Part shown: positions 7,734-25,290 of the stretch, in pieces
Layout: every line of letters begins with the position of its first letter
Position numbering within the stretch: the stretch's first letter is position 1
Sequence record: PZ296772.1
DNA length: 64,000 nt
DNA from: a phage
Direction: 5' to 3' (one strand)
Position numbers and translations under genes: made by a program
The notes under the pieces: model-generated
The model's database searches: none
What the model was told of the DNA's origin: nothing
Seen by the model: only the letters and a program-made list of their open reading frames with translations

Positions 7734-7742
7734 CGAAACGAA

Positions 7743-8744: not shown

Positions 8745-8882
8745 GCTTATAGGAAGTTCTGAGGTAACAAAAGCCATAAAGATGAATAATCATATGGCTT
8801 ACCTCAAAGAAGGACACCAGGAACCTACTGAGGGCATAGAAATATTTAAAAATAATGATGTACAAATCAAAGAGGATATGTT

Positions 8883-9170
8883 ATGGATTTTATGCAAAAA
8901 ATTAAAGCCGCAGTCGAACTCTATGCTCATCGTATGGTTAGTTCTACAATGCAATATAGCGAGGAGGTTCGCCAGGACTCTTCCTTGAAAGGAAAAACTA
9001 AAGCCTTAATTACCTTAGATCGTTTGCAAAAGAATGCCATAGAGATGCTCCAGTACGATAAGGATGTGTATAAGAAAGAACAGGAAGAGAAACTTAAATC
9101 TGAAAAATTACAAAAAATCCCGAAGTCGGTTTGGTTCAGTGGAAAAAATACCGAAAAAAGTTTCTTTTAG
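8883..9170 (+). CDS. hypothetical protein
   Basis: 95-aa ORF with AGAGGA RBS; preferred over overlapping 8782..8988 frame. Confidence 0.4.
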   Translation: MDFMQKIKAAVELYAHRMVSSTMQYSEEVRQDSSLKGKTKALITLDRLQKNAIEMLQYDKDVYKKEQEEKLKSEKLQKIPKSVWFSGKNTEKSFF

Positions 9171-9172
9171 TT

Positions 9173-9208
9173 GTTTACAAGGTCTATGATTATGTTATTA
9201 TAGACCTA
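9173..9208 (+). promoter_or_regulatory. early promoter-like cassette inside inverted repeat
   Basis: GTTTAC, 17 nt, TATTAT; aggtctat/atagacct inverted repeat. Confidence 0.5.
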
Positions 9209-9228
9209 TCAACTACTGGAGGTAAAAC

Positions 9229-9756
9229 ATGAACGCTAAAGATATTTTCAACCTGGTAAATTATAACGACGGTAAATTTAAATCTGAAGCACAAAGCAAG
9301 TTCTTTAATGACGTTGCTTATGGTAACGAGATTACCGTGGACGGAGGTCAGATTTTCAAATCTCGCTGGAATTGGATTGTTATCATCGATTCGGTTGGAA
9401 TTGTGGAAGTCTACAAAAACACTAACAAAAAACGTACATTATTCTGGTCTCGTGAAACTAACGAGCAGTACAAAAAGGATAAAGCATCTCGTTTATCCAA
9501 AGTAACCCAGGAAGATATCGAGTTTATCAAGAAAGATATCGAGATGTACGAAAATTTAATCGCTGAAGACCAGGCAGTACTCGATAAGTTTGATGAAATT
9601 AAAGCTTCTCGTGAAATCCCTGACTTCATGAAAGAAACAGTAAACGAACGATACGCTCTCACTTCAGAACGTATTGCAAACTATACAAAACAGAAAGCAG
9701 AACGTATTAGTACTCTTCGGAAATTTGAAGAACGTTTAAAGTCGGTTCACGCATAA
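9229..9756 (+). CDS. hypothetical protein
   Basis: 175 aa, RBS GGAGG. Confidence 0.5.
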   Translation: MNAKDIFNLVNYNDGKFKSEAQSKFFNDVAYGNEITVDGGQIFKSRWNWIVIIDSVGIVEVYKNTNKKRTLFWSRETNEQYKKDKASRLSKVTQEDIEFIKKDIEMYENLIAEDQAVLDKFDEIKASREIPDFMKETVNERYALTSERIANYTKQKAERISTLRKFEERLKSVHA

Positions 9757-9783
9757 ACGCTTTACCCAAGGACGGGTTATAAT
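9755..9783 (+). promoter_or_regulatory. MotA-box-like middle promoter candidate
   Basis: aaaCGCTTTA, 13 nt, TATAAT (Mot box consensus wwwTGCTTtA, one mismatch). Confidence 0.4.
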
Positions 9784-9818
9784 GGTTTTGAGTTCCAATT
9801 CAATCTGAGGAAATAGTT

Positions 9819-10814
9819 ATGAGCATTACATCTGATGCGGTAAAACATGAAATTAACGGTTTATGTGCTTCACAGATTAAAGTGTGGTTTAAAGACCATA
9901 ACGATCGCAGAGCACTTAATTATGAGCAAATTGCTATCCAAGTTCATCAATTACTGACAAGTAAATTTGATTTTCATATGCCGTCTGAAATCTATACTAA
10001 TCTGCCGCGAGCACTTATTAAAGCGTGTAAAGGTTATGGAAAATCAATGGCTGACGGAATATTCAGCGCGCTGAATAAACTTAACGTTCTGTCGATGATT
10101 AACTCTAACAACATCCTGCGTAATCTAGGACGTACTGATTTGTTCGGTCGTGAACAGTGTAAAATGCCTTTGAAATGGATTGTTGCCCATCTTAACGAGA
10201 ACCAAACACGTTTTATGGCTGTAACAGCACGTTTACAAATGGGCCTAGATCGTCAGATGAACTTTAAAACTCATCCACGTTATTCAGGTTCAACAAACTT
10301 TTATAAATGTGAGCTTCAAAAGGTTGGTGGCAAAACTGTCTTAGTAGTTCGTGTAACGTTTGAAGGACGTCGTCAAGGATATTTTGACATAATCGGCTCT
10401 GGACTTAAACATTGTGGATTTATCGACGAAGTTGATATCAAGCGAGACGGCATTGGATACCGTATTGGGTATGTTTGTACTCTTAAAGAAGAGATTTCAG
10501 GACCAGCACCAGGACTAAAAGACGTTAGATATAAAGACGAGCTCGTTGAAGAAATAAAAGAAGTTGAATATGATATCAACCAAGAAGATGCTCTTAAAGA
10601 CCTTATTGATGAACTGAACCAAGACGTTATTCCGGTTCAGAAATTTGAATCAAAACATGCTGAGCAAATCAAATACTTTGAAGCTTTGATTAACGAACTT
10701 AATGTAACTATTCAACAGACTGATGATGAAATCTCACGATTAGCGGGCTTAAACGGTAAAAATAAAACAGAACGAGCTAATCTTATTCAAGTAGTAAAAC
10801 TTCTTAAGGAATGA
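9819..10814 (+). CDS. hypothetical protein with C-terminal coiled-coil
   Basis: 331 aa; heptad-like C-terminal ~70 aa. Confidence 0.5.
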   Translation: MSITSDAVKHEINGLCASQIKVWFKDHNDRRALNYEQIAIQVHQLLTSKFDFHMPSEIYTNLPRALIKACKGYGKSMADGIFSALNKLNVLSMINSNNILRNLGRTDLFGREQCKMPLKWIVAHLNENQTRFMAVTARLQMGLDRQMNFKTHPRYSGSTNFYKCELQKVGGKTVLVVRVTFEGRRQGYFDIIGSGLKHCGFIDEVDIKRDGIGYRIGYVCTLKEEISGPAPGLKDVRYKDELVEEIKEVEYDINQEDALKDLIDELNQDVIPVQKFESKHAEQIKYFEALINELNVTIQQTDDEISRLAGLNGKNKTERANLIQVVKLLKE

Positions 10815-10843
10815 TGTACAACCAAGGATGGTTGGAGTATAAT
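10815..10843 (+). promoter_or_regulatory. promoter with CAACCA-N4-TGGTTG palindrome (family member 1)
   Basis: tGTACAaccaaggatggttggagTATAAT; palindrome in the spacer. Confidence 0.5.
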
Positions 10844-10869
10844 AAATTTTTCAACATGAGGAATATAAA

Positions 10870-11829
10870 ATGGCTTTTATTACACGTAGAGAACTTATCA
10901 AAGAATTTACCTCGAACGCATATACTCCAGGACCTAATCCTATCCGTATGCCTGTAAAGACTCCTGAAGAGATTGAGGAAATCTGTTCATATTATGGGAT
11001 TAATTCTCGTATGTTTACTCAATTTGAATGCGTTACTAACACACCCGTTAAAGAGTTCATTAAAAATGGTGAGTTCAGCCGTTTATTAGCCAAACAGAAA
11101 CTTCGTAATTTTTGTATCGGCGGCTGCGGACAATATTTTGCTAAACAGTTCCGAAATAACCTTAACAATCTGATGGCCATTGCTTCTCGTATTCGTCCTC
11201 AAGCAATTAACATGAAACATTTGAAATATACTTACGATAAGTTAGAAATCATGGTTATCAGTGAGAATGAGTTCACTCTTACATATAAACCTAAGAATGA
11301 TAACGTTGCTCGTGTATTCCACCAAGCGCTAGAAGTGTTAGGCGATAATATCCATGAGATTAAAGCAATTTATTCTCGTGAGCTTAATATTATCGACCCT
11401 ATCAAGAATAAGGGCCATATCGCTATCCAGGCTCGTGTATCTATTGGTAAAAAGGTTCCTGCGCCATGGTGGCACAAAGACTCTGAATACTATCAAAATC
11501 TTAAAAAGGAAAATGCATTGTTTGAAGGCAATATTACAGCAACACCAGTCGGTAATGCAGAGGTTCTAGGCGCATATTCTCCAGCACAATCTGGTATGTT
11601 TAAAGGTTTGCCAAATGTGTGCAAACTGTCGGCAGTAAAACTAAATGTTTCTAATGACCTTCTTCCGGCAGAAGATTATCATTACAACCAAATCAAGGCT
11701 ACTGTAGACCAACTGTCCGTTGAACTTGACAAAGCACAAGCTAAGCTTCGTGATGCTCAAAGTGTTGTAACGAATCTCCAGTTGCAGTATTCTAAACTTT
11801 TTAATGCAATGAATGCATTAAAATCATAA
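10870..11829 (+). CDS. hypothetical protein with C-terminal coiled-coil
   Basis: 319 aa; C-terminal LDKAQAKLRDAQSVVTNLQLQYSKL. Confidence 0.5.
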   Translation: MAFITRRELIKEFTSNAYTPGPNPIRMPVKTPEEIEEICSYYGINSRMFTQFECVTNTPVKEFIKNGEFSRLLAKQKLRNFCIGGCGQYFAKQFRNNLNNLMAIASRIRPQAINMKHLKYTYDKLEIMVISENEFTLTYKPKNDNVARVFHQALEVLGDNIHEIKAIYSRELNIIDPIKNKGHIAIQARVSIGKKVPAPWWHKDSEYYQNLKKENALFEGNITATPVGNAEVLGAYSPAQSGMFKGLPNVCKLSAVKLNVSNDLLPAEDYHYNQIKATVDQLSVELDKAQAKLRDAQSVVTNLQLQYSKLFNAMNALKS

Positions 11830-11833
11830 AACG

Positions 11834-11863
11834 GTTTACAACCAAGGATGGTTGGAATATAAT
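11834..11863 (+). promoter_or_regulatory. promoter with CAACCA-N4-TGGTTG palindrome (family member 2)
   Basis: GTTTACaaccaaggatggttggaaTATAAT. Confidence 0.5.
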
Positions 11864-11891
11864 GAATCTATCTTAACGAGAGGAAAATATT

Positions 11892-12842
11892 ATGACACGT
11901 TCACATTACATTGAATACTTTGCCGGGCTTATCGCTAACGTTCATGCCCAGCGCGCTTCTGGTGCACTAGGATTTGATGTTCCACACCGAGATGTAGTAA
12001 GTGGTATTCTTCGTGATTTTGGTACATACACAGGTCAAGAAAATCATATCTGTAAAGATACTCAAAATGCATATTCTCATTCATTAGGGACACTGCTTCA
12101 ATGGTTCAAACGTTCTCGTTTATTATCTTCTACTGTAGCTCGTGATAACATCAAAAACTTTATGAAGCCGAGCTTTATTAAATCTGTGACATCTAAAACC
12201 GATTTGGTTGAATTCACTATTGTTAATGATGTTAAAAAGACTCATTTGGCTGATTGGTTATCTACCATTCCTGAAACTAAATTTGCTGATAAATTTGCTT
12301 GTGAATTCAATAACCAAGTGAATATGCTTTTTAAACATTCTCGTAAATTATTCACGGGCGGTGATGGTCGTACAAATAAAGTTCATGTTAAAGATTGGGT
12401 TACTGCAGTATTCAAACCAACCGGTAATGGTAACGCATCATTATCAATTGATATCCAGGTTCCTTATTACTACTCACGTAATCTCGGTACCATGAAAGCT
12501 GAAGAAATTAATAAGCATAACAAAACCGTTCGTTCGTTGTCTTATAAACTTATTACATTGTTAGAGACTATGGATGTTGTTGAAACGTTCGACGAGTCCG
12601 AAGATAACGGTTCAATGTTATACAGTTCTCGCACCCGAATTAAGCTGAGGAACCCTAACGAGTATAAACTTAAGACTATTAAAGAACCTAAAGTAGAAAA
12701 AGTTGACAACTTGAGCGAAGAACGTGAGTACCTCAAATCTCGTCTGAAAGAAGTCGAAGCCCAGATTAAAGAACAGACTAAATCGTTAAAAGCTCTGAAT
12801 GCGAAAGCGGATGGTTTACGAAATGCCATTGAGGTGTTATAA
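11892..12842 (+). CDS. hypothetical protein with C-terminal coiled-coil
   Basis: 316 aa; C-terminal EEREYLKSRLKEVEAQIKEQTKSLKALNAKADGLRNAIEVL. Confidence 0.5.
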   Translation: MTRSHYIEYFAGLIANVHAQRASGALGFDVPHRDVVSGILRDFGTYTGQENHICKDTQNAYSHSLGTLLQWFKRSRLLSSTVARDNIKNFMKPSFIKSVTSKTDLVEFTIVNDVKKTHLADWLSTIPETKFADKFACEFNNQVNMLFKHSRKLFTGGDGRTNKVHVKDWVTAVFKPTGNGNASLSIDIQVPYYYSRNLGTMKAEEINKHNKTVRSLSYKLITLLETMDVVETFDESEDNGSMLYSSRTRIKLRNPNEYKLKTIKEPKVEKVDNLSEEREYLKSRLKEVEAQIKEQTKSLKALNAKADGLRNAIEVL

Positions 12843-13147
12843 TGAATCTACGTCTTCTAGAGGATATTGATATGAGCACTAATCATGGCTTAGTTAAGTT
12901 TATTGATGATAGTTCAAAGATTGAATTTGTTCAGCGAGATAAAATCCTCGGTGAAGAAGAGTTCGTTCCTCCGGCATGGAACGAAATAATGAAAATGGTT
13001 GAACGACGTGAAAATGCTGCCAAATCGGCAGCAAAACATCCATGCCCAGAATGTGGAACTATCCAGGTCCAACTGGTTAACTGGACCACTGATAACTTGA
13101 AATTGAAATGCCGTAAATGCTTCCACAAATTTGAGAGAACAATATAA
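12842..13147 (+). CDS. zinc-ribbon protein
   Basis: C-terminal CPECG...(17)...CRKC. Confidence 0.45.
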   Translation: MNLRLLEDIDMSTNHGLVKFIDDSSKIEFVQRDKILGEEEFVPPAWNEIMKMVERRENAAKSAAKHPCPECGTIQVQLVNWTTDNLKLKCRKCFHKFERTI

Positions 13148-13560
13148 TGAGATATAGCCTTCGTTGTTTTATCGCAGCTTTAGTTTTTGCCATTATTCCA
13201 TTCATTTGGAACAGCCAGAATACTTACATGGAAACTAAAGTAATTCCTGTGGAGGTAGTGGAATTAATCTCAGGCCAATCTACAGGAAAATATTCTAAAT
13301 TAGAATTTATTGCAGTCTATAAAGATGAGCAAGGACGAGTTTTTGACAGGCATGTATCACCATCGTTTTATACGCTTCTGAATAAAGGTGATACGATAGC
13401 TATAGAAATTCGTGAGATGGATATTCAGCAAAATACTCGAGATAACATCATTTGGTTCTTTGGTACAGTGCTGATGTTTTCTATCGGTATCACAGGTTTT
13501 ATTACATGTATTGTATTTGGCATTGCATATTTAATCGATGAAAGGAAAAATAATGTTTAA
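13147..13560 (+). CDS. membrane protein
   Basis: N-terminal and C-terminal hydrophobic segments. Confidence 0.45.
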   Translation: MRYSLRCFIAALVFAIIPFIWNSQNTYMETKVIPVEVVELISGQSTGKYSKLEFIAVYKDEQGRVFDRHVSPSFYTLLNKGDTIAIEIREMDIQQNTRDNIIWFFGTVLMFSIGITGFITCIVFGIAYLIDERKNNV

Positions 13561-13816
13561 AGTGTACGGGTATGACTCTACTATTCATAAATGCATTTAT
13601 TGTGATAATGCGAAACGATTGCTGACTGTTAAGAAACAGCCATTCGAATTCATTAATGTTATGCCAGAAAAAGGTGTGTTCGATGATGAGAAAATTGCTG
13701 AGCTTCTGGTTAAGCTTGGACGTGAATCACAAGTCGGATTGACTATGCCACAGATATTTGCTCCTGATGGAAGTCATATTGGTGGATTTGACCAACTGCG
13801 AGAATATTTTAAATGA
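13553..13816 (+). CDS. nrdC: glutaredoxin/thioredoxin NrdC
   Basis: Start moved to ATG after AAAGGA; 87 aa; MFKVYGYDSTIHKCIYCDNAKRLL with CxxC; matches recalled T4 NrdC. Confidence 0.8.
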   Translation: MFKVYGYDSTIHKCIYCDNAKRLLTVKKQPFEFINVMPEKGVFDDEKIAELLVKLGRESQVGLTMPQIFAPDGSHIGGFDQLREYFK

Positions 13817-14109
13817 GTATTGATTTAACTTTCCCGGGCTCTTATGACCAGGGTAAATTAGAAGCTTTGTTATATCAAGAAATGTGTTCTCGTGCTAAGA
13901 ACGATATCCAATATGCTATCGATAATCCATGGGGTGAATTTCGTATATTAATGGGTAATCGAATCATAGGTGTTCAATGGCGATTCGTTGGTCTTGAACC
14001 TGAAGACTACGAAGAAAACGAGCACGGTGACTGGATTCCTGTTGGTGAATATCACTGGGAATACGGTGGTCCTGATTTCGAAGTTTCCTGTGCCTGGGTA
14101 GAACAATAA
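13813..14109 (+). CDS. hypothetical protein
   Basis: 98-aa ORF with coupled start. Confidence 0.4.
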   Translation: MSIDLTFPGSYDQGKLEALLYQEMCSRAKNDIQYAIDNPWGEFRILMGNRIIGVQWRFVGLEPEDYEENEHGDWIPVGEYHWEYGGPDFEVSCAWVEQ

Positions 14110-14127
14110 ACTGCGAGAATATTTTAA

Positions 14128-14484
14128 ATGACATATTCATTAAATCTTAAAGATTTCCAAGATGCATACGAAGTTTGTGTATCAGAGCTTGGTCCTGAAT
14201 CTCCATCTATTATTGAAGTTTTAAATGTGCTCCCTTCATCATTAGCGTATGAAGCCAAATCATGGGGATGGAATGATACTATTGTTCGTGATGACTTGTA
14301 TGTCCTGATGAATGACATGATGGTTAAAAAGGCAGAACCGGTTGCACCAATGGTTACCATTACCGTTGAAGAATATAATCGCCTGCAAGCCATTGAAGAG
14401 CTTCTGTGGAACATTGAATGTGACCTGCCGTCAGGGCTAGAATCCTGGATTGATTATGAAGAGCTCAATAAACTCCGGGGTTAA
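14128..14484 (+). CDS. hypothetical acidic protein
   Basis: 118-aa ORF. Confidence 0.4.
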   Translation: MTYSLNLKDFQDAYEVCVSELGPESPSIIEVLNVLPSSLAYEAKSWGWNDTIVRDDLYVLMNDMMVKKAEPVAPMVTITVEEYNRLQAIEELLWNIECDLPSGLESWIDYEELNKLRG

Positions 14485-14533
14485 ACCGTGGTATTCTGCT
14501 CGATGGGAGACTGTCGAGCCAGACGTCGAAACG

Positions 14534-14563
14534 GTTTACAACGACGAAGAACCATGTTATGAT
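14534..14563 (+). promoter_or_regulatory. early promoter-like
   Basis: GTTTAC, 18 nt, TATGAT; cgtcg/cgacg palindrome around the -35. Confidence 0.4.
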
Positions 14564-14612
14564 GAACCTTCAATAAATGAATTAATTGATATGGAAATGG
14601 GAAGAGATTATT

Positions 14613-14783
14613 ATGCAAGTTAAATTATTGTACCGTTTATTAAAAAACGGCAAGCATGATTGGTATTTGCTTATTAAAACCGATCCGAATTTTTTCTCTG
14701 GACAACCATTTACAGTTCGTCCTACTAAACGTCAGCTTCGCAAAGCTAAACGTTCTCATCGTAACTTTTATAGAGAATATTGA
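14613..14783 (+). CDS. small basic protein with VRPTKRQ tail
   Basis: Start at internal ATG after GGGAAGAG; C-terminal FTVRPTKRQLRKAKR shared with 44045..44257. Confidence 0.35.
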   Translation: MQVKLLYRLLKNGKHDWYLLIKTDPNFFSGQPFTVRPTKRQLRKAKRSHRNFYREY

Positions 14784-14784
14784 T

Positions 14785-15198
14785 ATGAATATTTCTGAAA
14801 CTCGCGGTAAATGGTTCAAGATTGTTAAAGAAGACGAAGAACTACAAGACAAGTTTCCTGAATTAAAGAAAGGAACAATCCTCAAGGTAATTGGTACTAC
14901 TACCGAAGATGGTTATGGCGACCATGGCATTATCGAAGTGATGTTGAACACAGGTGAGAAACTTTGCATCTATGACCGTGATACTTCTCTTTGGTGCTTC
15001 TGGGAATCCCATTCAATAGATGAACTCGAAGAAATTGACCAAGTAGTTTGTGATGGTGGACTTGGCGAATTCGAAGGTGAACGTATTTCTTATGCTTTAG
15101 CTAAATTAGCTGGTCAAGAAAATAATGACGGTTATGAAGGTAATCTGATGCAAGCCGCAGCGGAATACATTGAATATTTAGAAAGACGTTTAAGTTAA
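14785..15198 (+). CDS. hypothetical acidic protein
   Basis: Start moved to internal ATG; 137 aa. Confidence 0.45.
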   Translation: MNISETRGKWFKIVKEDEELQDKFPELKKGTILKVIGTTTEDGYGDHGIIEVMLNTGEKLCIYDRDTSLWCFWESHSIDELEEIDQVVCDGGLGEFEGERISYALAKLAGQENNDGYEGNLMQAAAEYIEYLERRLS

Positions 15199-15203
15199 TA
15201 AAT

Positions 15204-15230
15204 ACCCTTATCTATTTAAGGTAAGGGTTT
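15204..15230 (+). terminator. hairpin immediately upstream of gene 49 (terminator or RBS-occluding structure)
   Basis: accctta / taagggt stem with 11-nt loop, ending 4 nt before the ATG. Confidence 0.35.
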
Positions 15231-15233
15231 ATC

Positions 15234-15707
15234 ATGTTATTATCAGGCGCAAAATATAAAGAAGAAAAACAAAAATTTTATGATGCACAGAATGGTAAGT
15301 GTCCTATTTGCCACCGTGAATTAGACCCTGATGTTCAAGGTAACCATCTTGACCACGACCATGAATTAAACGGGCCAAAAGCTGGTAAGGTTCGTGGTTT
15401 ACTATGTAACCTGTGCAATGCAGCAGAAGGTCAAATGAAGCATAAGTTCAACCGTTCTGGTCTTAAAGGTCAAAACGTTGATTACCTCGAATGGCTTGAA
15501 GCTCTTCTTGCTTATTTGAAACAAGATTATTCTGATAATAATATCCATCCTAATTTTGTTCCAGACAAAACTAAAGAGTTCTCAAGACTAGGTAAAGAGG
15601 AAATGATGACTGAGATGCTTCAAAGAGGATTTGAATATAATGAATCTGATACTAAAACACAATTAATAGCTTCATTCAAAAAGCAGCTTAGAAAGAGTTT
15701 AAAATGA
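15234..15707 (+). CDS. 49: endonuclease VII (Holliday junction resolvase)
   Basis: 157 aa; zinc motif CPIC...CNLCN and HLDHDHELNGPKAGKVRGLLC; near-identical to recalled T4 gp49. Confidence 0.9.
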   Translation: MLLSGAKYKEEKQKFYDAQNGKCPICHRELDPDVQGNHLDHDHELNGPKAGKVRGLLCNLCNAAEGQMKHKFNRSGLKGQNVDYLEWLEALLAYLKQDYSDNNIHPNFVPDKTKEFSRLGKEEMMTEMLQRGFEYNESDTKTQLIASFKKQLRKSLK

Positions 15708-16241
15708 CGATTGAAAAAGAAATTGAAGGACTAATTCATAAAACTAATAAAGACCTTTTAAACGAGAATGCTAATAAAGATTCTCGTGTTTTTCCAACTC
15801 AACGGGACCTTATGGCTGGTATTGTGTCTAAACACATTGCCAAAAATATGGTCCCGTCTTTTATTATGAAAGCGCATGAAAGCGGAATTATCCATTTCCA
15901 CGATATTGATTATTCCCCTGCTCTTCCATTTACTAATTGCTGTTTAGTAGATTTAAAAGGAATGCTTGAGAACGGATTTAAGCTCGGTAATGCACAGATT
16001 GAAACTCCTAAATCAATCGGCGTTGCTACTGCAATTATGGCGCAAATTACTGCACAGGTTGCTTCCCACCAATATGGCGGAACGACTTTTGCGAATGTAG
16101 ATAAAGTACTTTCTCCTTATGTTAAACGCACCTATGCAAAACATATTGAGGATGCAGAAAAATGGCAAATCGCTGATGCGTTGAATTATGCTCAATCTAA
16201 AACAGAAAAAGATGTATATGACGCGTTTCAGGCGTATGAGT
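15704..16241 (+). CDS. nrdD: anaerobic ribonucleoside-triphosphate reductase NrdD, exon 1
   Basis: ORF interrupted by an in-frame stop 2 codons past the predicted 5' splice site; P1 pairing defines the exon end. Confidence 0.8.
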
Positions 16242-16452
16242 TAATTTAATTCAGGCTCATGTAAAACCGGTCTAAACGGGGAACCTCTCTAGTAGACAAT
16301 CCCGTGCTAAATGTTCTTTTGAACTAAATGCCTAACGACTAACCGTGATGAATGTAGCGGTGTAGAATAGAAGCTAATGCTATTCGAAACGGCCGGCATC
16401 GAAAGATGAAGATATAGTCTAATCTGCATGGCGACATGCAGCAGTCATCTTG

Positions 16453-16460
16453 TATAAATA
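16453..16460 (+). promoter_or_regulatory. T4-type late promoter TATAAATA inside intron
   Basis: Exact TATAAATA about 30 nt upstream of the endonuclease ATG. Confidence 0.45.
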
Positions 16461-16489
16461 AGATTATCTTATGAATACGAGGTGAAACA

Positions 16490-17260
16490 ATGAAATGGAT
16501 AAAAAGACGTTGTACTAAAATAAAAGATAAAGACGCATTTACATACTTAGTTAAGTTTTCTAATGGCGACATTTATATCGGTTATAAAAAATTTAGAACA
16601 ATTAAAAACAAGCCCACAAACTGGAAAACTTACACAACGTCATCTAAGTATATAAATGAACGCTTAAAAACTGATACACCTACTAAATGGATAATTTTAA
16701 AAACATTTGATAGTTATAAAGATGCATTAAAACATGAAGAAGAGGTCATACGTAAATATTTTTATAGCAAAAAATGTTTAAATAAATCCATAGGCGGTAA
16801 AAAGTTTTATAAGCATCCGGATACTGAAGAACATATTCAAAAATTAAGAGATGCTCATAAGGGTAAAGTGTTATCCGAATCTCATAAAAACAATATAAAA
16901 TCTTCTGTGGCTGAATATTATGCTAAAAACAGAAGATCTAAGGAACATGTGCAAAATAATATCAATAGTCGAAAAAGTAAAAAACAAGTATCGATAAAGC
17001 TTAAAAATAAAACTTTTAGAAGTTTTAAAAAAGCAGCGGAATATTTAAATTGCACTGAAAGTGAAGTCGAAACTCATCCTCTTGTTTTGAGTATTAAGAC
17101 TACTATTCATAAAGTTCCTGAATATGTGGTTGTTGACGGTATTAAGTATACGTCTTATATAGAAGCAGCTAAAGCGCTAAATTTTCATCCTAGCACTATA
17201 AAAGAACGTTGCATATCTATGGACTATCCAAATTTTGTTGTTTCATATAAACGGGCATGA
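16490..17260 (+). CDS. intron-encoded GIY-YIG homing endonuclease (I-TevII-like)
   Basis: 256 aa in the 3' part of the intron; GIY-YIG-like TYLV..DIYIGY; NUMOD3-like basic repeats (HKGKVLSESHKNNIKSS); C-terminal HTH-like IKYTSYIEAAKALNFHPSTIKERC. Confidence 0.75.
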   Translation: MKWIKRRCTKIKDKDAFTYLVKFSNGDIYIGYKKFRTIKNKPTNWKTYTTSSKYINERLKTDTPTKWIILKTFDSYKDALKHEEEVIRKYFYSKKCLNKSIGGKKFYKHPDTEEHIQKLRDAHKGKVLSESHKNNIKSSVAEYYAKNRRSKEHVQNNINSRKSKKQVSIKLKNKTFRSFKKAAEYLNCTESEVETHPLVLSIKTTIHKVPEYVVVDGIKYTSYIEAAKALNFHPSTIKERCISMDYPNFVVSYKRA

Positions 17261-17274
17261 ATTTGCGACTCATG

Positions 17275-18566
17275 CTGAATATAATGATGAAGTAAATACA
17301 CTTTTCAGCTCTAATGGTCAAACGCCTTTTGTAACAATTACATTTGGTACGGGAACTGACTGGACTGAACGAATGATTCAGAAAGCAATTCTGAAAAATC
17401 GTATTAAAGGTCTTGGTCGTGATGGGATAACTCCTATTTTCCCTAAGCTTGTTATGTTCGTTGAAGAAGGTGTTAATCTTTATAAAGATGATCCGAACTA
17501 TGATATTAAGCAGCTTGCTTTAGAGTGTGCAAGCAAAAGGATGTATCCTGATATTATTTCAGCTAAGAACAATAAAGCTATCACTGGTTCATCTGTTCCT
17601 GTTTCTCCAATGGGTTGCCGTAGTTTCTTGAGCGTATGGAAAGATTCGACTGGTAATGAAATTCTTGATGGACGTAATAATCTTGGTGTTGTAACACTGA
17701 ATCTTCCTCGCATCGCGTTAGATTCTTATATTGGAACACAGTTCAATGAACAGAAATTTATCGAATTGTTCAATGAACGAATGGATTTATGTTTTGAAGC
17801 TTTGATGTGTAGAATTAGTTCCTTAAAAGGAATTAAAGCTACTGTTGCTCCTATTCTTTACCAAGAAGGTGCATTCGGGGTTCGTCTTAAACCCGATGAC
17901 GATATAATTGAGTTATTTAAAAACGGTAGAAGTTCAGTGTCTTTAGGATACATTGGTATTCACGAATTGAATATTCTTATCGGTCGTGATATTGGACAAG
18001 AAATTTTAACTAAAATGAATGCTCATCTTAAACAGTGGACTGAAAGAACTGGGTTTGCTTTTAGTTTGTATTCTACTCCTGCTGAAAACCTTTGCTATCG
18101 CTTCTGTAAACTTGATACAGAAAAATATGGAAGTGTAAAGGATGTTACTGATAAAGGTTGGTACACTAACAGTTTCCATGTTTCAGTAGAAGAAAATGTT
18201 ACTCCGTTTGAAAAGATTTCTCGTGAAGCGCCATATCATTTCATTGCGACAGGTGGTCACATTTCTTATGTTGAACTTCCTGATATGAAAAATAACTTAA
18301 AAGGTCTTGAGGCTGTATGGGATTATGCCGCACAACATTTAGATTATTTTGGTGTTAATATGCCAGTAGATAAATGTTTTACATGTGGAAGTACCCATGA
18401 AATGACTCCTACTGAAAACGGATTTGTTTGTTCTATTTGCGGAGAAACTGATCCTAAAAAGATGAATACCATAAGAAGAACATGTGGTTATTTGGGAAAT
18501 CCGAACGAACGCGGATTTAATCTCGGTAAAAATAAAGAAATCATGCATAGGGTTAAACACCAATGA
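17275..18566 (+). CDS. nrdD: anaerobic ribonucleoside-triphosphate reductase NrdD, exon 2
   Basis: NGQTPFVTITFG; zinc ribbon CFTCGS...CSICGE; C-terminal glycyl-radical motif RRTCGYLG. Confidence 0.85.
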
Positions 18567-19033
18567 ATTATGATAGATTTTATCCCTGTGATTTTGTGAA
18601 TGGCCCTGGATGCAGGGTCGTTCTTTTCGTCACAGGTTGTTTGCATAAATGCGAAGGGTGTTATAATAAATCAACATGGAATGCTAGAAATGGTATTCCA
18701 TTCACTGGTGAAACACTGGAACAATTAATTGAATGTTTGAATAATGATTATACAGAAGGATTAACTATAACTGGGGGAGACCCTCTTTATCCTGATAACA
18801 GAGATGTGATTCATTGCATTGTTCAAACAGTAAAAAATCTTTATCCCAGTAAAAGCATTTGGTTGTGGACAGGATATAAGTTTGAAGATATTAAACAACT
18901 AGAAATGCTTAAATATGTTGATGTTATTATTGATGGGAAGTATGAGAAAAATCTTCCGACCAAAAAGCTGTGGCGAGGATCAGATAATCAGCGACTTTGG
19001 TCAAATACCGATGGGGTGTGGAAACATGATTAA
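18563..19033 (+). CDS. nrdG: anaerobic RNR activating enzyme (radical SAM)
   Basis: 156 aa; CLHKCEGC radical-SAM cluster motif; coupled to nrdD stop. Confidence 0.85.
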   Translation: MNYDRFYPCDFVNGPGCRVVLFVTGCLHKCEGCYNKSTWNARNGIPFTGETLEQLIECLNNDYTEGLTITGGDPLYPDNRDVIHCIVQTVKNLYPSKSIWLWTGYKFEDIKQLEMLKYVDVIIDGKYEKNLPTKKLWRGSDNQRLWSNTDGVWKHD

Positions 19034-19148
19034 ATTGAATTACATTATGGATACTATAAATGATATGATTTTTCATTTTGGTCCAGAATTTTATTCCCAA
19101 TATAGTTTAGTGCTTATCAATGCTTGGTTAATTAATTAAGGATAAAAT

Positions 19149-19364
19149 ATGTATAAATTTCGTAAAGGTTTAGCTGATTTTCTTACAACTGTAACATTCT
19201 TTCTGTTTATGGCAGTTGGAGCTATTTTTCTTATTCCTTTTACTGGTGTATTTTTCGTGATTAGTTTAATTTCTCCAGAAAAGGGCTTATCTTCTAATGA
19301 GTTCAATGAGCGTCTGGATAAAATTACTAACAAACTGAATTCTGTTCTTGATAAAAAGGCTTAA
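19149..19364 (+). CDS. membrane protein
   Basis: 71 aa with central hydrophobic segment. Confidence 0.45.
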   Translation: MYKFRKGLADFLTTVTFFLFMAVGAIFLIPFTGVFFVISLISPEKGLSSNEFNERLDKITNKLNSVLDKKA

Positions 19365-19366
19365 TT

Positions 19367-19684
19367 ATGATTAGTTTTGAGCGGTACGTGGTAGAGAGTT
19401 GGAATGGGTTTGATATGTTCGGTAATGACTATTATTTTTACGAATGTAATCTAAATCCTAGTTTTTGGGCTGGACGTGAACGAGATCTCGAAGAAATTAA
19501 TGCTCGTGCCGAATTGTTAGGTGAACTGCCTACAGTTTATTTTACATTTGATGAATCCGGCTTCGTTATCCAGGTTTATTTTCCTGAAGAAAACTCGGGT
19601 GAGGATTCTGTTAATCCTCCTTATTGGGCTTACCAAGGAATTATTTCTCGTGGAACAAAACTCGAACTTAAAGAACAAGATTGA
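19367..19684 (+). CDS. hypothetical protein
   Basis: 105-aa ORF. Confidence 0.45.
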   Translation: MISFERYVVESWNGFDMFGNDYYFYECNLNPSFWAGRERDLEEINARAELLGELPTVYFTFDESGFVIQVYFPEENSGEDSVNPPYWAYQGIISRGTKLELKEQD

Positions 19685-19973
19685 AATTTATGGCATCCCT
19701 GAAGAAGTTGGACGTTGTCCAGGATGTTATACTGTTACAAAACTTTTAAAGGAGCTCAATGTTCCTTATACATTTTATAAAGTCCTCACTAATAATGGTA
19801 AGATTGAATACGACCGTCCTTTAATCGTATCTCTTGCTAAACGTGCAGGATTCACTTCACTTAATATTCGTTATCCTGTCATATTTTTAAATGATAAGAA
19901 ACAAAAGAATATTGCAGAGTTTAAAAAGTCCTTGATTTCATTAGGATACGACTCTGATATCATAGAAGATTGA
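19650..19973 (+). CDS. nrdH: glutaredoxin/thioredoxin-fold protein (NrdH-like); probable GTG start
   Basis: KIEIYGIPEEVGRCPGCYTV with CPGC redox motif and YPVIF; GTG at 19650 has AAGGA about 10 nt upstream; overlaps upstream gene. Confidence 0.5.
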   Translation: MEQNSNLKNKIEIYGIPEEVGRCPGCYTVTKLLKELNVPYTFYKVLTNNGKIEYDRPLIVSLAKRAGFTSLNIRYPVIFLNDKKQKNIAEFKKSLISLGYDSDIIED

Positions 19974-19979
19974 CCAGGT

Positions 19980-19998
19980 GCCGCCTGGTCTTCTTTAT
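19980..19998 (+). terminator. terminator-like hairpin
   Basis: gaccagg-tgccg-cctggtc stem-loop with weak T-rich tail. Confidence 0.35.
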
Positions 19999-20083
19999 CC
20001 TATTTCTAATATAATCCATTGGAATCTTCACTTCACTATCTCCTTGTGCCCCTCTCAAATCAAAAATATTTTTCATAAAACAG

Positions 20084-20111
20084 TTTACATCCTCGATAGA
20101 TGTGTTAAGAT
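20084..20111 (+). promoter_or_regulatory. early promoter-like
   Basis: GTTTAC, 17 nt, TAAGAT. Confidence 0.45.
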
Positions 20112-20139
20112 TAAACCAACTGCTATAGAGGAAAACAAA

Positions 20140-20322
20140 ATGACAATTGAAGATAAAGAAATTAAGGTTGACCAGTACTATTCTGTCAACGGTAACGCAG
20201 TACAGATAACCGGAGTTTCAAGCCTGGATGTTTGGTACCGTTCAATCAAATATCCAGAAATTGGTGAAATGCTTTGTGACCGTAGTATCTTCTGTTCAAT
20301 TGCGAAGGAAATTAAGCCATGA
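20140..20322 (+). CDS. hypothetical protein
   Basis: Start moved to ATG after AGAGGA; 60 aa. Confidence 0.45.
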   Translation: MTIEDKEIKVDQYYSVNGNAVQITGVSSLDVWYRSIKYPEIGEMLCDRSIFCSIAKEIKP

Positions 20323-20567
20323 TTAGTTTAGATTCAAAGAAGGTTGTTCTAACCCTTAAAGTTAATGACGAGCATCCGGTATTCATTACCATTTCCGATT
20401 TGCATGTTGAAATTGCTAATGGCGTTCGTACTTATCAAGCAAATAAAACTCATTGGGACTATATCCCAATGTTGACGCTTACTCAGCGTTTAGAATCAAT
20501 CGGTCTTAAAGACCTTTCAGTAAGTGAAGTGAATTTTATCAAACGCATTGTATCAATCAACCTCTGA
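20319..20567 (+). CDS. hypothetical protein
   Basis: 82-aa ORF, coupled start. Confidence 0.45.
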   Translation: MISLDSKKVVLTLKVNDEHPVFITISDLHVEIANGVRTYQANKTHWDYIPMLTLTQRLESIGLKDLSVSEVNFIKRIVSINL

Positions 20568-20574
20568 GGTACTT

Positions 20575-20868
20575 ATGGGTAAAACATATCGTCGTAAAGA
20601 TTTGAAAGTTCGCGATTACGACTATTTTGGTAAGCGTAAAGCTCCTGACGGTGTTAGCCACAAAGACATGGTTGAAAACATCTTCCGCTCAGATAAATGG
20701 AAACGTATGAAAGGTGTTGATTCTGAAGTCAAGAACGAAATGAATCGACAACTCCGCAAAGAAGTTCGTAAGTTGAAAAAAGATGTTTACAGTAAAGAAG
20801 ATTATGATTATAATACTTCTCATACTGAAGCCAAACGTAAAGCTAACGAATGTTATCGTTACAGTTGA
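20575..20868 (+). CDS. highly basic Lys/Arg-rich protein
   Basis: Start moved to ATG after GAGG; about 30% K+R. Confidence 0.45.
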   Translation: MGKTYRRKDLKVRDYDYFGKRKAPDGVSHKDMVENIFRSDKWKRMKGVDSEVKNEMNRQLRKEVRKLKKDVYSKEDYDYNTSHTEAKRKANECYRYS

Positions 20869-20875
20869 GGAAATT

Positions 20876-21007
20876 ATGAATATCAAACGCTGGCTTTTTA
20901 AGCAAGGGTTCTACACTTTAAATTCTGCTCCAAAAGGCGATACAACTAAGTGGTCAGTAAATGACTGGATTAAATTTATTGATGAAAACGGTAACTGGAA
21001 AATTTAA
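20876..21007 (+). CDS. hypothetical small protein
   Basis: 43-aa ORF with GAGGA RBS; upstream part of the track ORF overlaps the previous gene. Confidence 0.35.
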   Translation: MNIKRWLFKQGFYTLNSAPKGDTTKWSVNDWIKFIDENGNWKI

Positions 21008-21208
21008 ATGAATCCTGAAAATATTGTGTCATGGCAACTTCGTGAAGAACGTGCAGAATTCTTTGCCAATATGAAACTCAACGGCGTTGAGGATGAAGAC
21101 TTCTTACGTTGGTTCTGGATTTACAAATACAAAGAATGCCAGCACGCTGTACTACTGACTTGTGCAGTTATGTACGAAGGCTGGAAAGGCGCTAAAAAGT
21201 TCGGTTAA
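21008..21208 (+). CDS. hypothetical protein
   Basis: 66-aa ORF, coupled start (taaATG). Confidence 0.4.
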   Translation: MNPENIVSWQLREERAEFFANMKLNGVEDEDFLRWFWIYKYKECQHAVLLTCAVMYEGWKGAKKFG

Positions 21209-21211
21209 TAA

Positions 21212-21250
21212 TGTACAACGATAGGAAGACATGTTATTATCTTCCTATCG
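21212..21250 (+). promoter_or_regulatory. promoter inside inverted repeat
   Basis: TGTACA ... TATTAT flanked by perfect 10-bp inverted repeat cgataggaag/cttcctatcg. Confidence 0.5.
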
Positions 21251-21271
21251 TCTTAAAATGAGGAAAATATC

Positions 21272-21511
21272 ATGGCCCAAGAATTAGATTTTATCAAATT
21301 CAAAAAACACCTCGACGTTAAAATTGGGGATTCAATTGTTAGGATTGAGTATGACATTTTAACAGATGCTATTACTGTTAGTTGTGATGGAAATAGTTTC
21401 AGCTTCGATACAACCGAAAACAAATACCCAATCTATAAAGGCATCTTTGATATGGGTGTTGATATCACTCCACGTGATACAAATTACTTACTTTTCATGC
21501 TTAAAAAATAA
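21272..21511 (+). CDS. hypothetical protein
   Basis: 79 aa; RBS GAGGAAAA. Confidence 0.45.
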   Translation: MAQELDFIKFKKHLDVKIGDSIVRIEYDILTDAITVSCDGNSFSFDTTENKYPIYKGIFDMGVDITPRDTNYLLFMLKK

Positions 21512-21576
21512 TATACAACTCTTGAGAGATGAGTATAATTCTCTAGTTGGATAATAAAATAACCGAGGAAAATAAT

Positions 21577-21909
21577 ATGTCTACTAAAATCAAAAACGTA
21601 GTTAATTCTTTCGCTTTCGATAAAGTTGTTGCTCTTCTGGAATCCGGCAATATTGTTACTCCTCAAGTTCTTGACGCGTGGGAATTCCGTCTTTATGAAA
21701 TCATGCAAAAACATGGCCAGAAAATTGGACGTAATTCTATTCGCGAAATTCTAGTACAATATATTCTTTCTGAATTTGACGTTGCTGCATTTGGTGTTGA
21801 ATCTAAAGCTTATCAGAAACATGAAATCTCTGAAAAGACTATCCGTCGTATGAAAAATCAACGTAAGAAAAAATTCGTTGACCTGAAAATTGTTAAGGCG
21901 GTAAAATGA
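21577..21909 (+). CDS. hypothetical protein
   Basis: Start moved to ATG after GAGGAAAA; 110 aa. Confidence 0.45.
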   Translation: MSTKIKNVVNSFAFDKVVALLESGNIVTPQVLDAWEFRLYEIMQKHGQKIGRNSIREILVQYILSEFDVAAFGVESKAYQKHEISEKTIRRMKNQRKKKFVDLKIVKAVK

Positions 21910-22133
21910 GCGTATTAACAGAAACTTTGATTAATGACCTGCGTCTAGCTGGTTACGAAGTTGGTACAAATAGCCTAGGTCTTCCTCAGATTGAAGGTCC
22001 TGGATTTATTCTAGAATATGAATTCAAACAATGGTGGTTATATGCTACGGTTGACGATGCGTTGAATATTGATTTCGTTGACCAATTTGATTCGCTGGAT
22101 GCTGCTCTTGAAGCAGCAAAGGAACTAGAATGA
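21906..22133 (+). CDS. hypothetical acidic protein
   Basis: 75 aa, coupled start. Confidence 0.4.
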   Translation: MSVLTETLINDLRLAGYEVGTNSLGLPQIEGPGFILEYEFKQWWLYATVDDALNIDFVDQFDSLDAALEAAKELE

Positions 22134-22399
22134 AATTAACTCGAATCAGTATAACTGAAGAAAAGCTTGGCGAATTTTATGTTGACGAATACATGAAAGT
22201 CACGTATTTTCCATTCGTTAAAGGTGTTGGTTTTTGGGAAACTCATGTATCTCAATTAAACGAAGGCGACTATAACGAAACACATGAGAACTTTTTAGAT
22301 TTTCTTTATAATGCCGGTCTTACTGAGCTTTATATCGATATCCATGAGTTCAAACGTTTAATGGAAAAAGTGTTTCAGGCTTATTGTTTGCTCCGATAG
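22130..22399 (+). CDS. hypothetical protein
   Basis: 89 aa, coupled start. Confidence 0.4.
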   Translation: MKLTRISITEEKLGEFYVDEYMKVTYFPFVKGVGFWETHVSQLNEGDYNETHENFLDFLYNAGLTELYIDIHEFKRLMEKVFQAYCLLR

Positions 22400-22406
22400 T
22401 ATCTCG

Positions 22407-22442
22407 TGCTTTAAGATAGGTCTCTAAATATTATGATATAAT
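22407..22442 (+). promoter_or_regulatory. promoter-like region upstream of gene 55
   Basis: TGCTTTA Mot-box-like element, ataggtct/agacctat inverted repeat and TATAAT. Confidence 0.4.
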
Positions 22443-22471
22443 AGACCTATGAATTGAGCCAAGAGGTACTT

Positions 22472-23029
22472 ATGACTGAACAAAAACCTAAAAATAACTA
22501 TGTGAATAATAAAGAGCTTCTCGCCGCTATAATCGAGTGGAAAAAGGAGCTCTTAAATAATAAAGACCCAAACAAAATTATTCGTCAGAATGATACCATC
22601 GGTTTAGCAATTATGCTTATCGCCGAAGGCCTGTCCAAACGTTTCAACTTTTCAGGATATACCCAGTCTTGGAAGCAGGAGATGATTGCAGATGGGATTG
22701 AAGCCTCTATTAAGGGACTTCATAATTTCGACGAAACTAAGTACAATAACCCACATGCATACATAACTCGAGCTTGTTTTAATGCTTTTGTCCAACGTAT
22801 CAAAAAAGAACGTAAGGAAGTTGCAAAGAAATATAGTTACTTCGTTCATAATGTCTACGACAGTCATGACGATGATATGGTAGCGTTGGTAGATGAAACG
22901 TTTATTCAAGACATCTACGATAAAATGACGCATTATGAAGAATCCGCTTATAAAGCTCCTGGGGCTGAAAAGAAGGAAGTTGTTAGCGATTCGCCTAGTT
23001 TGGATTTTTTATATGAGGATGACAATTGA
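22472..23029 (+). CDS. 55: late-transcription sigma factor gp55
   Basis: Start moved to ATG after AAGAGG; 185 aa as in T4; N-terminus [23 protein letters not shown] matches recalled T4 gp55. Confidence 0.8.
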
Positions 23030-23228
23030 CATCTCTAACTACTTAGAAGAACCTTTTGACGAAGCAATCCCTTATTTGGTAAAACTGTTGGGTCGTGAAT
23101 TTAAAATTAATTTTGACATCGACCCTTTGAACCCACATGACGTGTCATTTTCGATAAATGGGACTCCGGTTGAGTATGAGTTCTGTATTGAAGAGGATGG
23201 ACGTTTTTATTTTAATTTAATGAGATAA
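23019..23228 (+). CDS. hypothetical protein
   Basis: Internal ATG start overlapping the gp55 stop. Confidence 0.35.
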
Positions 23229-23229
23229 T

Positions 23230-23553
23230 ATGACTACCGAGATTATTGAAAATAAAGAAGCAGAAGATGCAGTAGCTAAAATGCTACAAGAAATCCAAAA
23301 GAAAAATGAAGCTGAAGCACGTAAAAAATCCGAAAAGATTCTTAAAAAGAATCGTTTTGAACTAAACCGTCTTTATGCTCATGCTCAAGAAGCAGCAATT
23401 CAAAACAACTTCGAAGCTTACGAATATGCTATTAAGAAATCTCGGGATATTCTACGACAACCATATAATGACAAGTTAATTAAAATCCAGTGGGTTACTA
23501 CTCGTCAGGCTATTGAGGACATCATTAATGGCGCTAGTTCAAACAAAGTTTAA
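23230..23553 (+). CDS. hypothetical protein
   Basis: 107 aa, charged and helical. Confidence 0.45.
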   Translation: MTTEIIENKEAEDAVAKMLQEIQKKNEAEARKKSEKILKKNRFELNRLYAHAQEAAIQNNFEAYEYAIKKSRDILRQPYNDKLIKIQWVTTRQAIEDIINGASSNKV

Positions 23554-23773
23554 ACGATTGAAGCTGAACGCAGGGTTCACCCTTAAATTGGGAGGTCCTC
23601 TTTGTGTTAAAATCTCTGAAAAGGAATATCACGACAGTTCTATTACAGAAATTTGTCCACCTATTGTAAAGGCAGACCCAAAACAACTCGTGTGGGTTGA
23701 TTCATTTCAAGTTAAGAAATGGTGGAAACGATGAGAGAAATCGATTTAGGCATTTTCTGAGAGGTGATTATGC

Positions 23774-23947
23774 ATGACGAACATCCCGACTTCTGAAAAT
23801 TTCGATAAAATCCGTAAAGGCAAAGCAGAAAGAATGAGACGTTTTAAAGAGTCTTATGATAAAGCTAAAGCCGAAGGAACTATTACGTACAAGCCCATTC
23901 GATTTAAAAGTTCAAATGAGCCTCTGTACGGTGTACTATGTGGATAG
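23774..23947 (+). CDS. hypothetical small protein (below ORF-track threshold)
   Basis: 57-aa ORF MTNIPTSENFDKIRKGKAER... with GAGAGG RBS, ending at a strong terminator. Confidence 0.3.
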   Translation: MTNIPTSENFDKIRKGKAERMRRFKESYDKAKAEGTITYKPIRFKSSNEPLYGVLCG

Positions 23948-23970
23948 GAACTCTTCGGAGTTCCTTTTTT
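23947..23970 (+). terminator. rho-independent terminator
   Basis: ggaactc-TTCG-gagttcc followed by T6. Confidence 0.65.
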
Positions 23971-24016
23971 GCTTTATAAACGGATGATAGAATGAATTAA
24001 CTAATGAGGAAATAAT

Positions 24017-25036: not shown

Positions 25037-25290
25037 CTTTAGATGAATTTAACAATGCTGGGCTCGGGCTTGAAGTTGAAATAGACGTTAAAGATGATGA
25101 TGGATTCGAGAACACCATCAAGTATTGGATTGAGCCATTACGCGTTGAAGGCAATGAAGTTAAAGCAGTTCATGTCTGCACCGACTGGGCTATTGAATTT
25201 AGCTTTAATATAATGGACAACGATACTCCCGGCTCTATTCTTAAAATGGCTGAAGCGTGTATCGAGGATGCGTATAATGACGAAGACTGA
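25033..25290 (+). CDS. hypothetical acidic protein
   Basis: 85 aa, coupled start. Confidence 0.45.
   Translation: MTLDEFNNAGLGLEVEIDVKDDDGFENTIKYWIEPLRVEGNEVKAVHVCTDWAIEFSFNIMDNDTPGSILKMAEACIEDAYNDED

Follow-up and report, generated by a model that had tools for sequence, protein, structure and literature searches.

The nrdD gene of this phage is interrupted by about 1 kb of additional sequence, which raises the questions of what the interrupting element is, where it ends and how it relates to the intron that T4 carries in the same gene. We addressed these questions in a window of 64,000 nucleotides, which is the whole stretch of DNA that was analysed. Our reading is that nrdD very probably carries a mobile group I intron of the T4 family (subgroup IA2) at 16242..17286 and that this intron represents a second, diverged lineage at the T4 nrdD (sunY) site. 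The splicing and the exact junctions are predicted here from homology. The features on which the argument is based are collected in Table 1.

Table 1. Positions of the nrdD exons, the predicted intron and its structural and coding elements in the window
Feature	Position	Strand	Description or basis
nrdD	15704..18566	+	Interrupted by a group I intron
nrdD exon 1	15704..16241	+	179 codons and base 1 of codon 180; read from the ORF and the Pfam NRDD profile
P1	16236..16260	+	Exon AUGAGU (16236-16241) with guide GCUCAU (16255-16260)
Group I intron, 1045 nt	16242..17286	+	Ends set by homology and intronless alleles
Ribozyme core P3-P9	16267..16441	+	Includes P7.1, P7.2 and, as the loop of P9, GCGA (GNRA-type); RF00028 and comparison with T4
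A-U of J7/9	16422..16423	+	Proposed P9.0 partner of A17284-U17285
Hairpin sequestering the Shine-Dalgarno GAGG (16479-16482)	16445..16485	+	11 bp, 16445-16455 with 16475-16485
TATAAATA, T4 late-promoter consensus	16453..16460	+	Exact match
Stretch resembling the intronless nrdD junction, putative autorepression operator	16466..16486	+	14/17 identities to the RB14 junction
Long-range helix, 5′ strand (P9.1-like)	16482..16492	+	11 bp, pairs with 17236-17246 and closes the ORF loop
Homing endonuclease gene, I-TevII-like, 256 aa	16490..17260	+	Pfam and I-TevII homology
Long-range helix, 3′ strand	17236..17246	+	Inside the 3′-terminal codons of the endonuclease ORF
Terminal 7-bp hairpin (P9.2-like)	17254..17276	+	GGCAUGA with UCAUGCU; fold and comparison with T4 nrdD, td and nrdB
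Single-stranded 3′ tail GAAUAUAAUG	17277..17286	+	Terminal G is 17286
nrdD exon 2	17287..18566	+	Begins AT GAA GTA..., stop codon included; Pfam NRDD and Gly_radical

The interrupted gene and its ribozyme core

The nrdD gene is flanked by gene 49 (endonuclease VII, 15234..15707) on one side and by nrdG (18563..19033) on the other. The frame of exon 1 reads ...DAFQAYE and then LI followed by a stop codon (16241/16249), and the rest of the protein is found in a second ORF. The first-pass annotation, made from the letters of the DNA, had described a frame that breaks after QAYE and resumes about 1 kb further on, and this is borne out by the ORFs and by the Pfam NRDD profile, whose positions 1-141 match exon 1 and whose positions 145-562 match exon 2, where the glycyl-radical domain (Pfam Gly_radical) is also located. 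Both exons are 97-98% identical to those of T4. Among the 46 GenBank carrier records that were examined or listed with annotation, none contains an annotation that joins the two halves. Because the halves were never joined in those records, nrdD stands there as two genes.

The Rfam group I covariance model, proposed as a check in the first-pass annotation, was run on the intron region. A search of 16200..17320 alone with RF00028 (Intron_gpI) returned a match at 16210..16441 that spans the full model (positions 1-253 of 253) and scores 73.2 bits against a gathering score of 50, with an E value of 2e-18. The Rfam scan of the whole window at gathering thresholds gave no match. Because the targeted search yields 73.2 bits, we attribute the empty whole-window scan to a miss by the speed filter and not to an absence of the intron.

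The 5′ splice site, between 16241 and 16242, is homologous to that of T4. The earlier reading had proposed a guide, ttcag followed by gctcat (16250..16260), of which gctcat pairs with the exon sequence atgagT with a U:G pair at the splice site, and the same P1 is present in T4: all 6 pairs, including the U16241:G16255 wobble, are the same there. The P1 that Rfam itself placed within the exon (16214-16239) was dropped in favour of this T4-homologous helix.

We compared the helices of the intron with those of T4 pair by pair. The results showed 10 compensatory pair changes and no broken pair among 45 (P1, P3-P7, P7.1, P9 and P9.0), a covariation that is shallow in depth, as it comes from two lineages only. 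Pairs altered on both sides were located in P3 (2), P4 (2), P6a (3) and P7.1 (2; 16342-16345 with 16358-16361), while P1, P5, P6, P7 and P9 were unchanged, and P1, P7 and P9 of the T4 intron are identical to those in the window. As read from the sequence, P7.2 (GAAUAG with CUAUUC) lies, like P7.1, between P7 and P3′. Taken as predicted structures, P7.1 and P7.2 are features of subgroup IA2 that the T4 introns of this subgroup also have. An 8-bp pairing of T4 between the P7.2 region and the 3′ strand of the terminal hairpin was discarded, as it is not conserved in the window intron. The long-range helix that would loop out the ORF retains 11 of 11 pairs in T4, three of them with one-sided changes.

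The 3′ splice site

By comparison with its homologs, the predicted 3′ boundary of the intron is 17286/17287 and not 17274/17275. The first-pass annotation had regarded the intron as resolved to the nucleotide, which holds for the 5′ site; its 3′ site, with G17274 as the terminal G, is 12 nt off. We base the boundary at 17286 on the intronless alleles, the boundaries in T4, the spliced gene, the 3′ module shared with other T4 introns and the change in P9.0.

The 12 nt CTGAATATAATG that separate the two sites are absent from the intronless alleles of RB14 and Jbel, which read TATGAAT/ATGAAGTAAAT (TATGAAT/ATGAAGT; the slash marks the junction). In total, 620 phage records cover the 399-nt spliced-junction query in its 17274 version, and the intronless alleles that were checked span 387 nt. 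The T4 intron aligned to 16242..17286 comes to exactly 1033 nt and yields the 605-aa T4 protein. For the window intron, the homologous boundaries give 1045 nt instead of the 1033 nt proposed earlier, so the agreement of that earlier figure with the length of the T4 intron is accidental.

Splicing at 17286 is predicted to join GAGT to ATGAAGTAAAT (GAGT/ATGAAG), giving an nrdD mRNA of 1818 nt, for which the alignments with spliced T4 and with RB14 are gap-free. The encoded NrdD of 605 aa, with the predicted peptide DVYDAFQAYEYEVNTLF..., would read QAYEYEVNTLF, and the same residues are found in the crystallised T4 NrdD (PDB 1H78). Splicing at 17274 would instead join GAGT to CTGAATATAATGATGAAG (GAGT/CTGAAT), with the predicted peptide ...QAYESEYNDEVNTLF... 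In the product that the first-pass annotation had written as QAYE-S-EYNDEVNTLF, SEYND replaces Y, which is a spurious insertion of 4 aa relative to PDB 1H78 and to the NRDD profile; the profile runs from 141 to 145 over the junction and leaves no space for four added residues. Because the frame of exon 2 is open upstream to 17235, the argument that splicing at 17274 is in frame carries no weight.

The T4 td, nrdB and nrdD introns and the window intron have a 3′ module in common, which consists of CGGG, a 7-bp hairpin and a single-stranded tail. The stems of the hairpin differ and yet pair in all four introns (besides that of the window, GGUAGAG with CUCUACU, GGGUAAG with CUUAUCU and GGUUGAG with CUCAAUC), and the loops contain CGA (ACGA in td and GCGA in the other three). 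The tail follows the consensus GAAYAYAWUG (for nrdB, GAACAUACG). In T4 td, nrdB and nrdD the intron terminates with the final G of this tail; G17286 is the homologous nucleotide in the window. With C17275 and U17276 added, the tail reads CUGAAUAUAAUG, and 11 of its 12 positions are the same in the final 12 nt of the T4 td intron (CUGAACAUAAUG). The hairpin, which folds at -7.6 kcal/mol, encloses both the stop codon of the ORF (17258-17260) and G17274, so that the terminal G of the first-pass annotation is paired inside a conserved element. In the 3′-terminal 65 nt, the divergent records aligned among the 46 carriers each have one variant position, G17254A or A17268T (BYEP01). The natural variant G17254A converts the closing G:U pair of the hairpin to A-U; neither variant discriminates between 17274 and 17286.

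The nucleotide at -2 of the window intron and J7/9 have changed together relative to T4, and in the candidate P9.0 (A-A with U-U in T4) one pair is thereby altered on both sides. That P9.0 forms in the nrdD intron is an assumption that we take, as we do the long-range pairing of sunY, from general knowledge of the sunY intron.

We compared the P10 candidates by duplex energies. AUUCAG (16249-16254) can pair with CUGAAU (17275-17280) over 6 bp at -4.0 kcal/mol, whereas the P10 candidate for 17286, UUCA with UGAA (17288-17291), is weaker at -1.9 kcal/mol. The complementarity noted in the first pass is therefore real, and longer than had been claimed, but its partner, taken there as ctgaa of exon 2, is the conserved tail of the intron. 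Such a P10 speaks for an intron that ends at 17274 (16242..17274, 1033 nt), with CUGAA(U) as its P10 and a 609-aa NrdD that carries SEYND in place of Y180; an A-U also precedes G17274, so that P9.0 could form there too, and the product is in frame. At the nrdD site of T4, however, P10 is weak (3 bp), so that selection of the 3′ site in the T4 intron does not depend on a strong P10, and the P10 of td, as read from its sequence, is likewise short (approximately 2 bp). T4 has A and not G at the position homologous to 17274, and CUGAAC is intronic there. Use of 17274 alone would also require the stem that holds G17274 and C17275 (-7.2 kcal/mol) to melt, a stem kept by compensatory changes in four introns, and would place in the exon 12 nt that no intronless allele examined contains and that correspond by homology to the 3′-terminal 12 nucleotides of the T4 nrdD and td introns. 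Considering also the four extra residues, which neither the crystallised protein nor the Pfam profile has, and a frame that is open back to 17235 regardless, we judge this boundary to be very unlikely.

Another reading has two in-frame 3′ sites in tandem, G17274 and G17286, spaced 12 nt apart and yielding two NrdD isoforms, with 17274 as a minor or cryptic site. Each G is preceded by A-U and followed by xUGAA, and two changes in the guide extension relative to T4 (16250 and 16254; UUCAG in the window intron compared with GUCAA in T4) together with one in the tail (17280) double the length of the duplex with 17275-17280, which grows from 3 bp to 6 bp. Two of these three changes are specific to 17274, a coincidence with an estimated chance of about 1 in 10; the terminal hairpin sequesters 17274, and the AUG at 17272-17274 can be accounted for as the stem complement of GCA-UGA, the last codons of the ORF. 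We consider such tandem sites very unlikely. That a strong 6-bp guide-extension pairing evolved in this lineage and that G17274 is used alongside G17286, with NrdD isoforms of 605 and 609 aa, is a distinctly unlikely proposition. If it were true, a bacteriophage group I intron would here be choosing between alternative 3′ splice sites.

With the boundary at 17286, the splicing route that we propose from the family is as follows. P1 would present the U16241:G16255 pair, and exogenous guanosine would attack after U16241. The 11-bp helix would loop out the ORF, and the terminal hairpin and the 10-nt tail would lead the chain back to the core. G17286 would then enter the G-binding site, aided by the 2-bp P9.0 (16422-16423 with 17284-17285) and the weak P10, and joining of the exons would restore the 605-aa NrdD.

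The endonuclease gene and its control

The product of the intron ORF can be aligned over its full length of 256 aa with I-TevII of T4 (NP_049691; 258 aa and thus of the same length class) at 56% identity (E 1e-85). The Pfam family SegE_GIY-YIG (PF19835) matched residues 9-106 with 27.5 bits (cut-off 25), and the generic GIY-YIG family PF01541 scored 10.5 bits. The GIY-YIG endonuclease recognised in the first-pass annotation is upheld by the SegE_GIY-YIG match above the Pfam cut-off and by the homology to I-TevII. A NUMOD3-like motif had been reported as well, but PF07460 gave no match in the ORF up to E=10 and NUMOD1 was found, with 25.3 bits (cut-off 22.8). At the homologous residues, I-TevII of T4 has a sub-threshold NUMOD3 match (18.8 bits, cut-off 20.4).

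An exact late promoter had been proposed upstream of the ORF. The exact TATAAATA is indeed present, as it is in T4 at the homologous place of the intron; across the 64,000-nt window the motif is not enriched, with 4 copies compared with 7.07 expected. Because the count alone gives no excess over chance, the value of the motif rests on its homologous placement in the T4 intron. According to PMC2988022, primer extension was used to map the promoters of the endonuclease genes in the T4 introns.

The hairpin that sequesters the Shine-Dalgarno sequence has a predicted energy of -17.3 kcal/mol (z = -5.1), and a transcript that begins downstream of TATAAATA loses it (-1.3 kcal/mol). The same arrangement of the ribosome-binding site (RBS) in a hairpin was described for I-TevII (PMC2988022). 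In early read-through transcripts the RBS would thus be locked in the hairpin, and transcripts from the putative TATAAATA late promoter would free it.

Just upstream of the ORF, the stretch that resembles the junction of intronless nrdD was matched equally well to the RB14 junction by 15 of 2000 shuffled sequences. The idea of an autorepression operator comes from earlier work (PMC2988022), and the resemblance fits this idea, which makes the stretch a putative operator. The predicted I-TevII-like GIY-YIG enzyme would cut intronless nrdD, and repair of the double-strand break would carry the intron and short flanking exon segments into further alleles.

Two intron lineages at one site

The first-pass annotation had equated the intron with that of T4 nrdD (NC_000866, 44815..45847), which does not hold at the level of sequence: nucleotide identity is 66.5%, compared with 97-98% for the exons, the endonucleases share 56% of their residues, and the lengths are 1045 and 1033 nt. 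The host gene is the same and the insertion site is identical, between the T of codon 180 and AT. The layout is also the same: the core is followed by an RBS hairpin containing TATAAATA, by the ORF, which an 11-bp helix would loop out, and finally by the terminal hairpin and a tail of approximately 10 nt. The window intron differs in a 9-nt insertion after TATAAATA and in P6a, P7.2 and P8, and the exon flanks from -28 to +38 have other synonymous bases than those of T4.

In the P3-P6 region, a run of 42 nt (16271-16312) is shared at 100% identity with the T4 td intron (I-TevI), whose terminal hairpin loop and last 12 nt are near-identical to those of the window intron; the td intron resides in a different host gene, and its ORF lies upstream of P6′ and P7, whereas the ORF of the window intron lies in P9.1. 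I-TevI gave no match to the window ORF at E<=1e-8 in a tblastn search, and the td endonuclease is not closely related. The T4 nrdB intron (I-TevIII) ends in the same 3′ module of CGGG, a 7-bp hairpin and a tail with terminal G; it is located in another gene, contains the remnant of an HNH endonuclease and is 598 nt in length.

The window-type intron was present at an identity of at least 99% in 46 phage records, mostly of Tequatrovirus and two of Mosigvirus, with an identical copy in HY03. Approximately 25 records, including T4, U5, PST and RB55, have the T4-type intron, and these two lineages are the only ones in the phage collection. A search of 5.8 billion proteins with the ORF returned 2 clusters, which correspond to the same two lineages. 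No further lineage of nrdD introns was found in IMG/VR (1 locus with a DNA pattern and 1 locus in a protein scan) or in the JGI metagenomes (1 identical locus). We found no published description of the second lineage in the literature searched, a body to which the survey of Sandegren and Sjoberg (2004) did not belong; the GenBank entries of that survey among our matches are intronless (RB14 and T6) or of the T4 type (U5). In all, the intron is an essentially ordinary element of textbook type, and the sister lineage is a new member of a known family.

The exons differ from those of T4 by 18 synonymous changes between -28 and +38, 7 at third codon positions from -28 to -7 and 11 from +8 to +38, and there are no differences from -165 to -29 or from +39 to +202. 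This cluster is a co-conversion-type patch around the predicted target of the endonuclease. The end of the patch varies among carriers. We count the patch among the signs of mobility, along with the ORF-deleted derivatives and the presence of a nearly unchanged intron in the 46 records, two Mosigvirus genomes among them.

The nrdD gene is dispensable for aerobic growth, and some relatives have a damaged endonuclease ORF, with internal deletions in two carriers and frameshifts in three (four records). Both points would suit a dead remnant, in which the insertion neither splices nor moves and nrdD is a split pseudogene. Against this stand the core helices, all intact and with compensatory changes, and the ORF, which is uninterrupted and recurs without change in a cluster with 64 members. 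Both exons are as close to T4 as noted above, with changes near the junction that are synonymous only, and the intron is nearly invariant over 46 genomes. We therefore regard a dead remnant as extremely unlikely and retain the reading of a mobile intron in an interrupted nrdD gene.

For annotation, a boundary at 17274 would put four false residues into NrdD. For the T-even phages, the finding means that two diverged lineages (66% nt and 56% aa identity) compete for an identical site in nrdD, each with its own patch of synonymous changes in the exon flanks. The pair of lineages is thus a natural system for the target specificity of I-TevII, for co-conversion and for intron turnover.

Detection and annotation of the split nrdD

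The first-pass annotation had placed a group I intron in nrdD, and the Rfam group I covariance model supported this claim with a score of 73.2 bits against a gathering score of 50 when the 1.1-kb region 16200..17320 was searched alone. A search of the whole window (1..64000) at gathering thresholds returned no match. Had an absent covariance-model match on whole windows been taken as a refutation, the finding would have been dismissed wrongly.

In the annotated carrier records that we examined, nrdD is entered as two separate, unjoined CDSs. The intron P9 hairpin, annotated as a rho-independent terminator by the depositors of OL960581 (phage SA20RB), is more likely a ribozyme helix. Downstream, the nrdD stop codon is overlapped by the nrdG start codon, and the window, unlike T4, lacks the mobC homing-endonuclease gene between the two genes.

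Features of the intron, its exon flanks and related introns (window positions unless stated)
Feature	Position	Detail
Exon-flank patch	16213..16234 and 17294..17324	-28..+38 of the junction
5′ splice-site region	16233..16243	GUAUGAGUU
P3-P6 core	16271..16312	42 nt, identity with the T4 td intron 100% across hundreds of phages
P6′ to P7.1	16324..16365	42 nt, 97.6% identity to sequences adjoining phage HNH homing-endonuclease genes
P9 hairpin	16424..16451	equivalent to 883..910 of the SA20RB locus (OL960581)
Junction-like stretch	16466..16486	5′ of the endonuclease start codon
Terminal hairpin, 3′ strand	17267..17275	GACUCAUGC
nrdD/nrdG overlap	18563..18566	
Intron of phage 215Ecol030PP (PP328843)		insert ~479 nt; endonuclease ORF mostly deleted; core and 3′ module (terminal hairpin plus 10-nt tail) intact
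Intron of phage BYEP01 (OR757453)		insert ~345 nt; endonuclease ORF mostly deleted; core and 3′ module intact

Relatives of the ribozyme core

Because the P3-P6 stretch is identical to that of the td intron and the T4 nrdD intron differs there, sequence comparison suggests that td-type and nrdD-type introns have exchanged cores. The phages sharing the P6′ to P7.1 stretch include Alf5, GE_vB_7A, VSe102 and D1-2 (genomes of 85-88 kb), and in some of those records the match lies inside or beside nrdD. Related cores were also found in Campylobacter and Aeromonas phages.

Exon flanks and the 5′ splice site

Within the exon-flank patch, the window and T4 differ at 18 clustered sites spaced by 3 nt, and every change is synonymous; the adjacent ~140-160 nt on each side hold no differences. 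The patch resembles a signature of co-conversion or of a target site, one particular to the window intron lineage. Its end point varies among carriers; in KAW3E185, the change to intronless-type sequence comes 13 nt into exon 2. Exon 1 ends in GAGT in the intron-containing alleles (window and T4) and in GAAT in the intronless alleles of RB14 and Jbel. Because G16240 (exon 1, position -2) forms the P1 G-C pair adjoining the U:G wobble, a flank travelling with the intron would also preserve P1.

The terminal hairpin has a 3′ strand similar in sequence to the internal guide. This strand could make a 9-bp duplex with the region around the 5′ splice site, and folding the two strands together gives that pairing as the lowest-energy structure; its T4 counterpart has 5 bp (AACUC with GAGUU).

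The endonuclease ORF across the lineage

The junction-like stretch, which overlaps the ribosome-binding site of the endonuclease ORF, shares 14/17 identities with the intronless nrdD junction, a likeness equalled in 15 of 2000 shuffles. It is consistent with the autorepression operator proposed for T4 intron endonucleases.

The introns of 215Ecol030PP and BYEP01 belong to the same lineage as the window intron, and frameshifted endonuclease ORFs occur in phages F1, FN and 236Ecol005PP (four records, including the RefSeq copy of F1). Judged from their sequences, these ORF-deleted and frameshifted introns look like stages of endonuclease decay.
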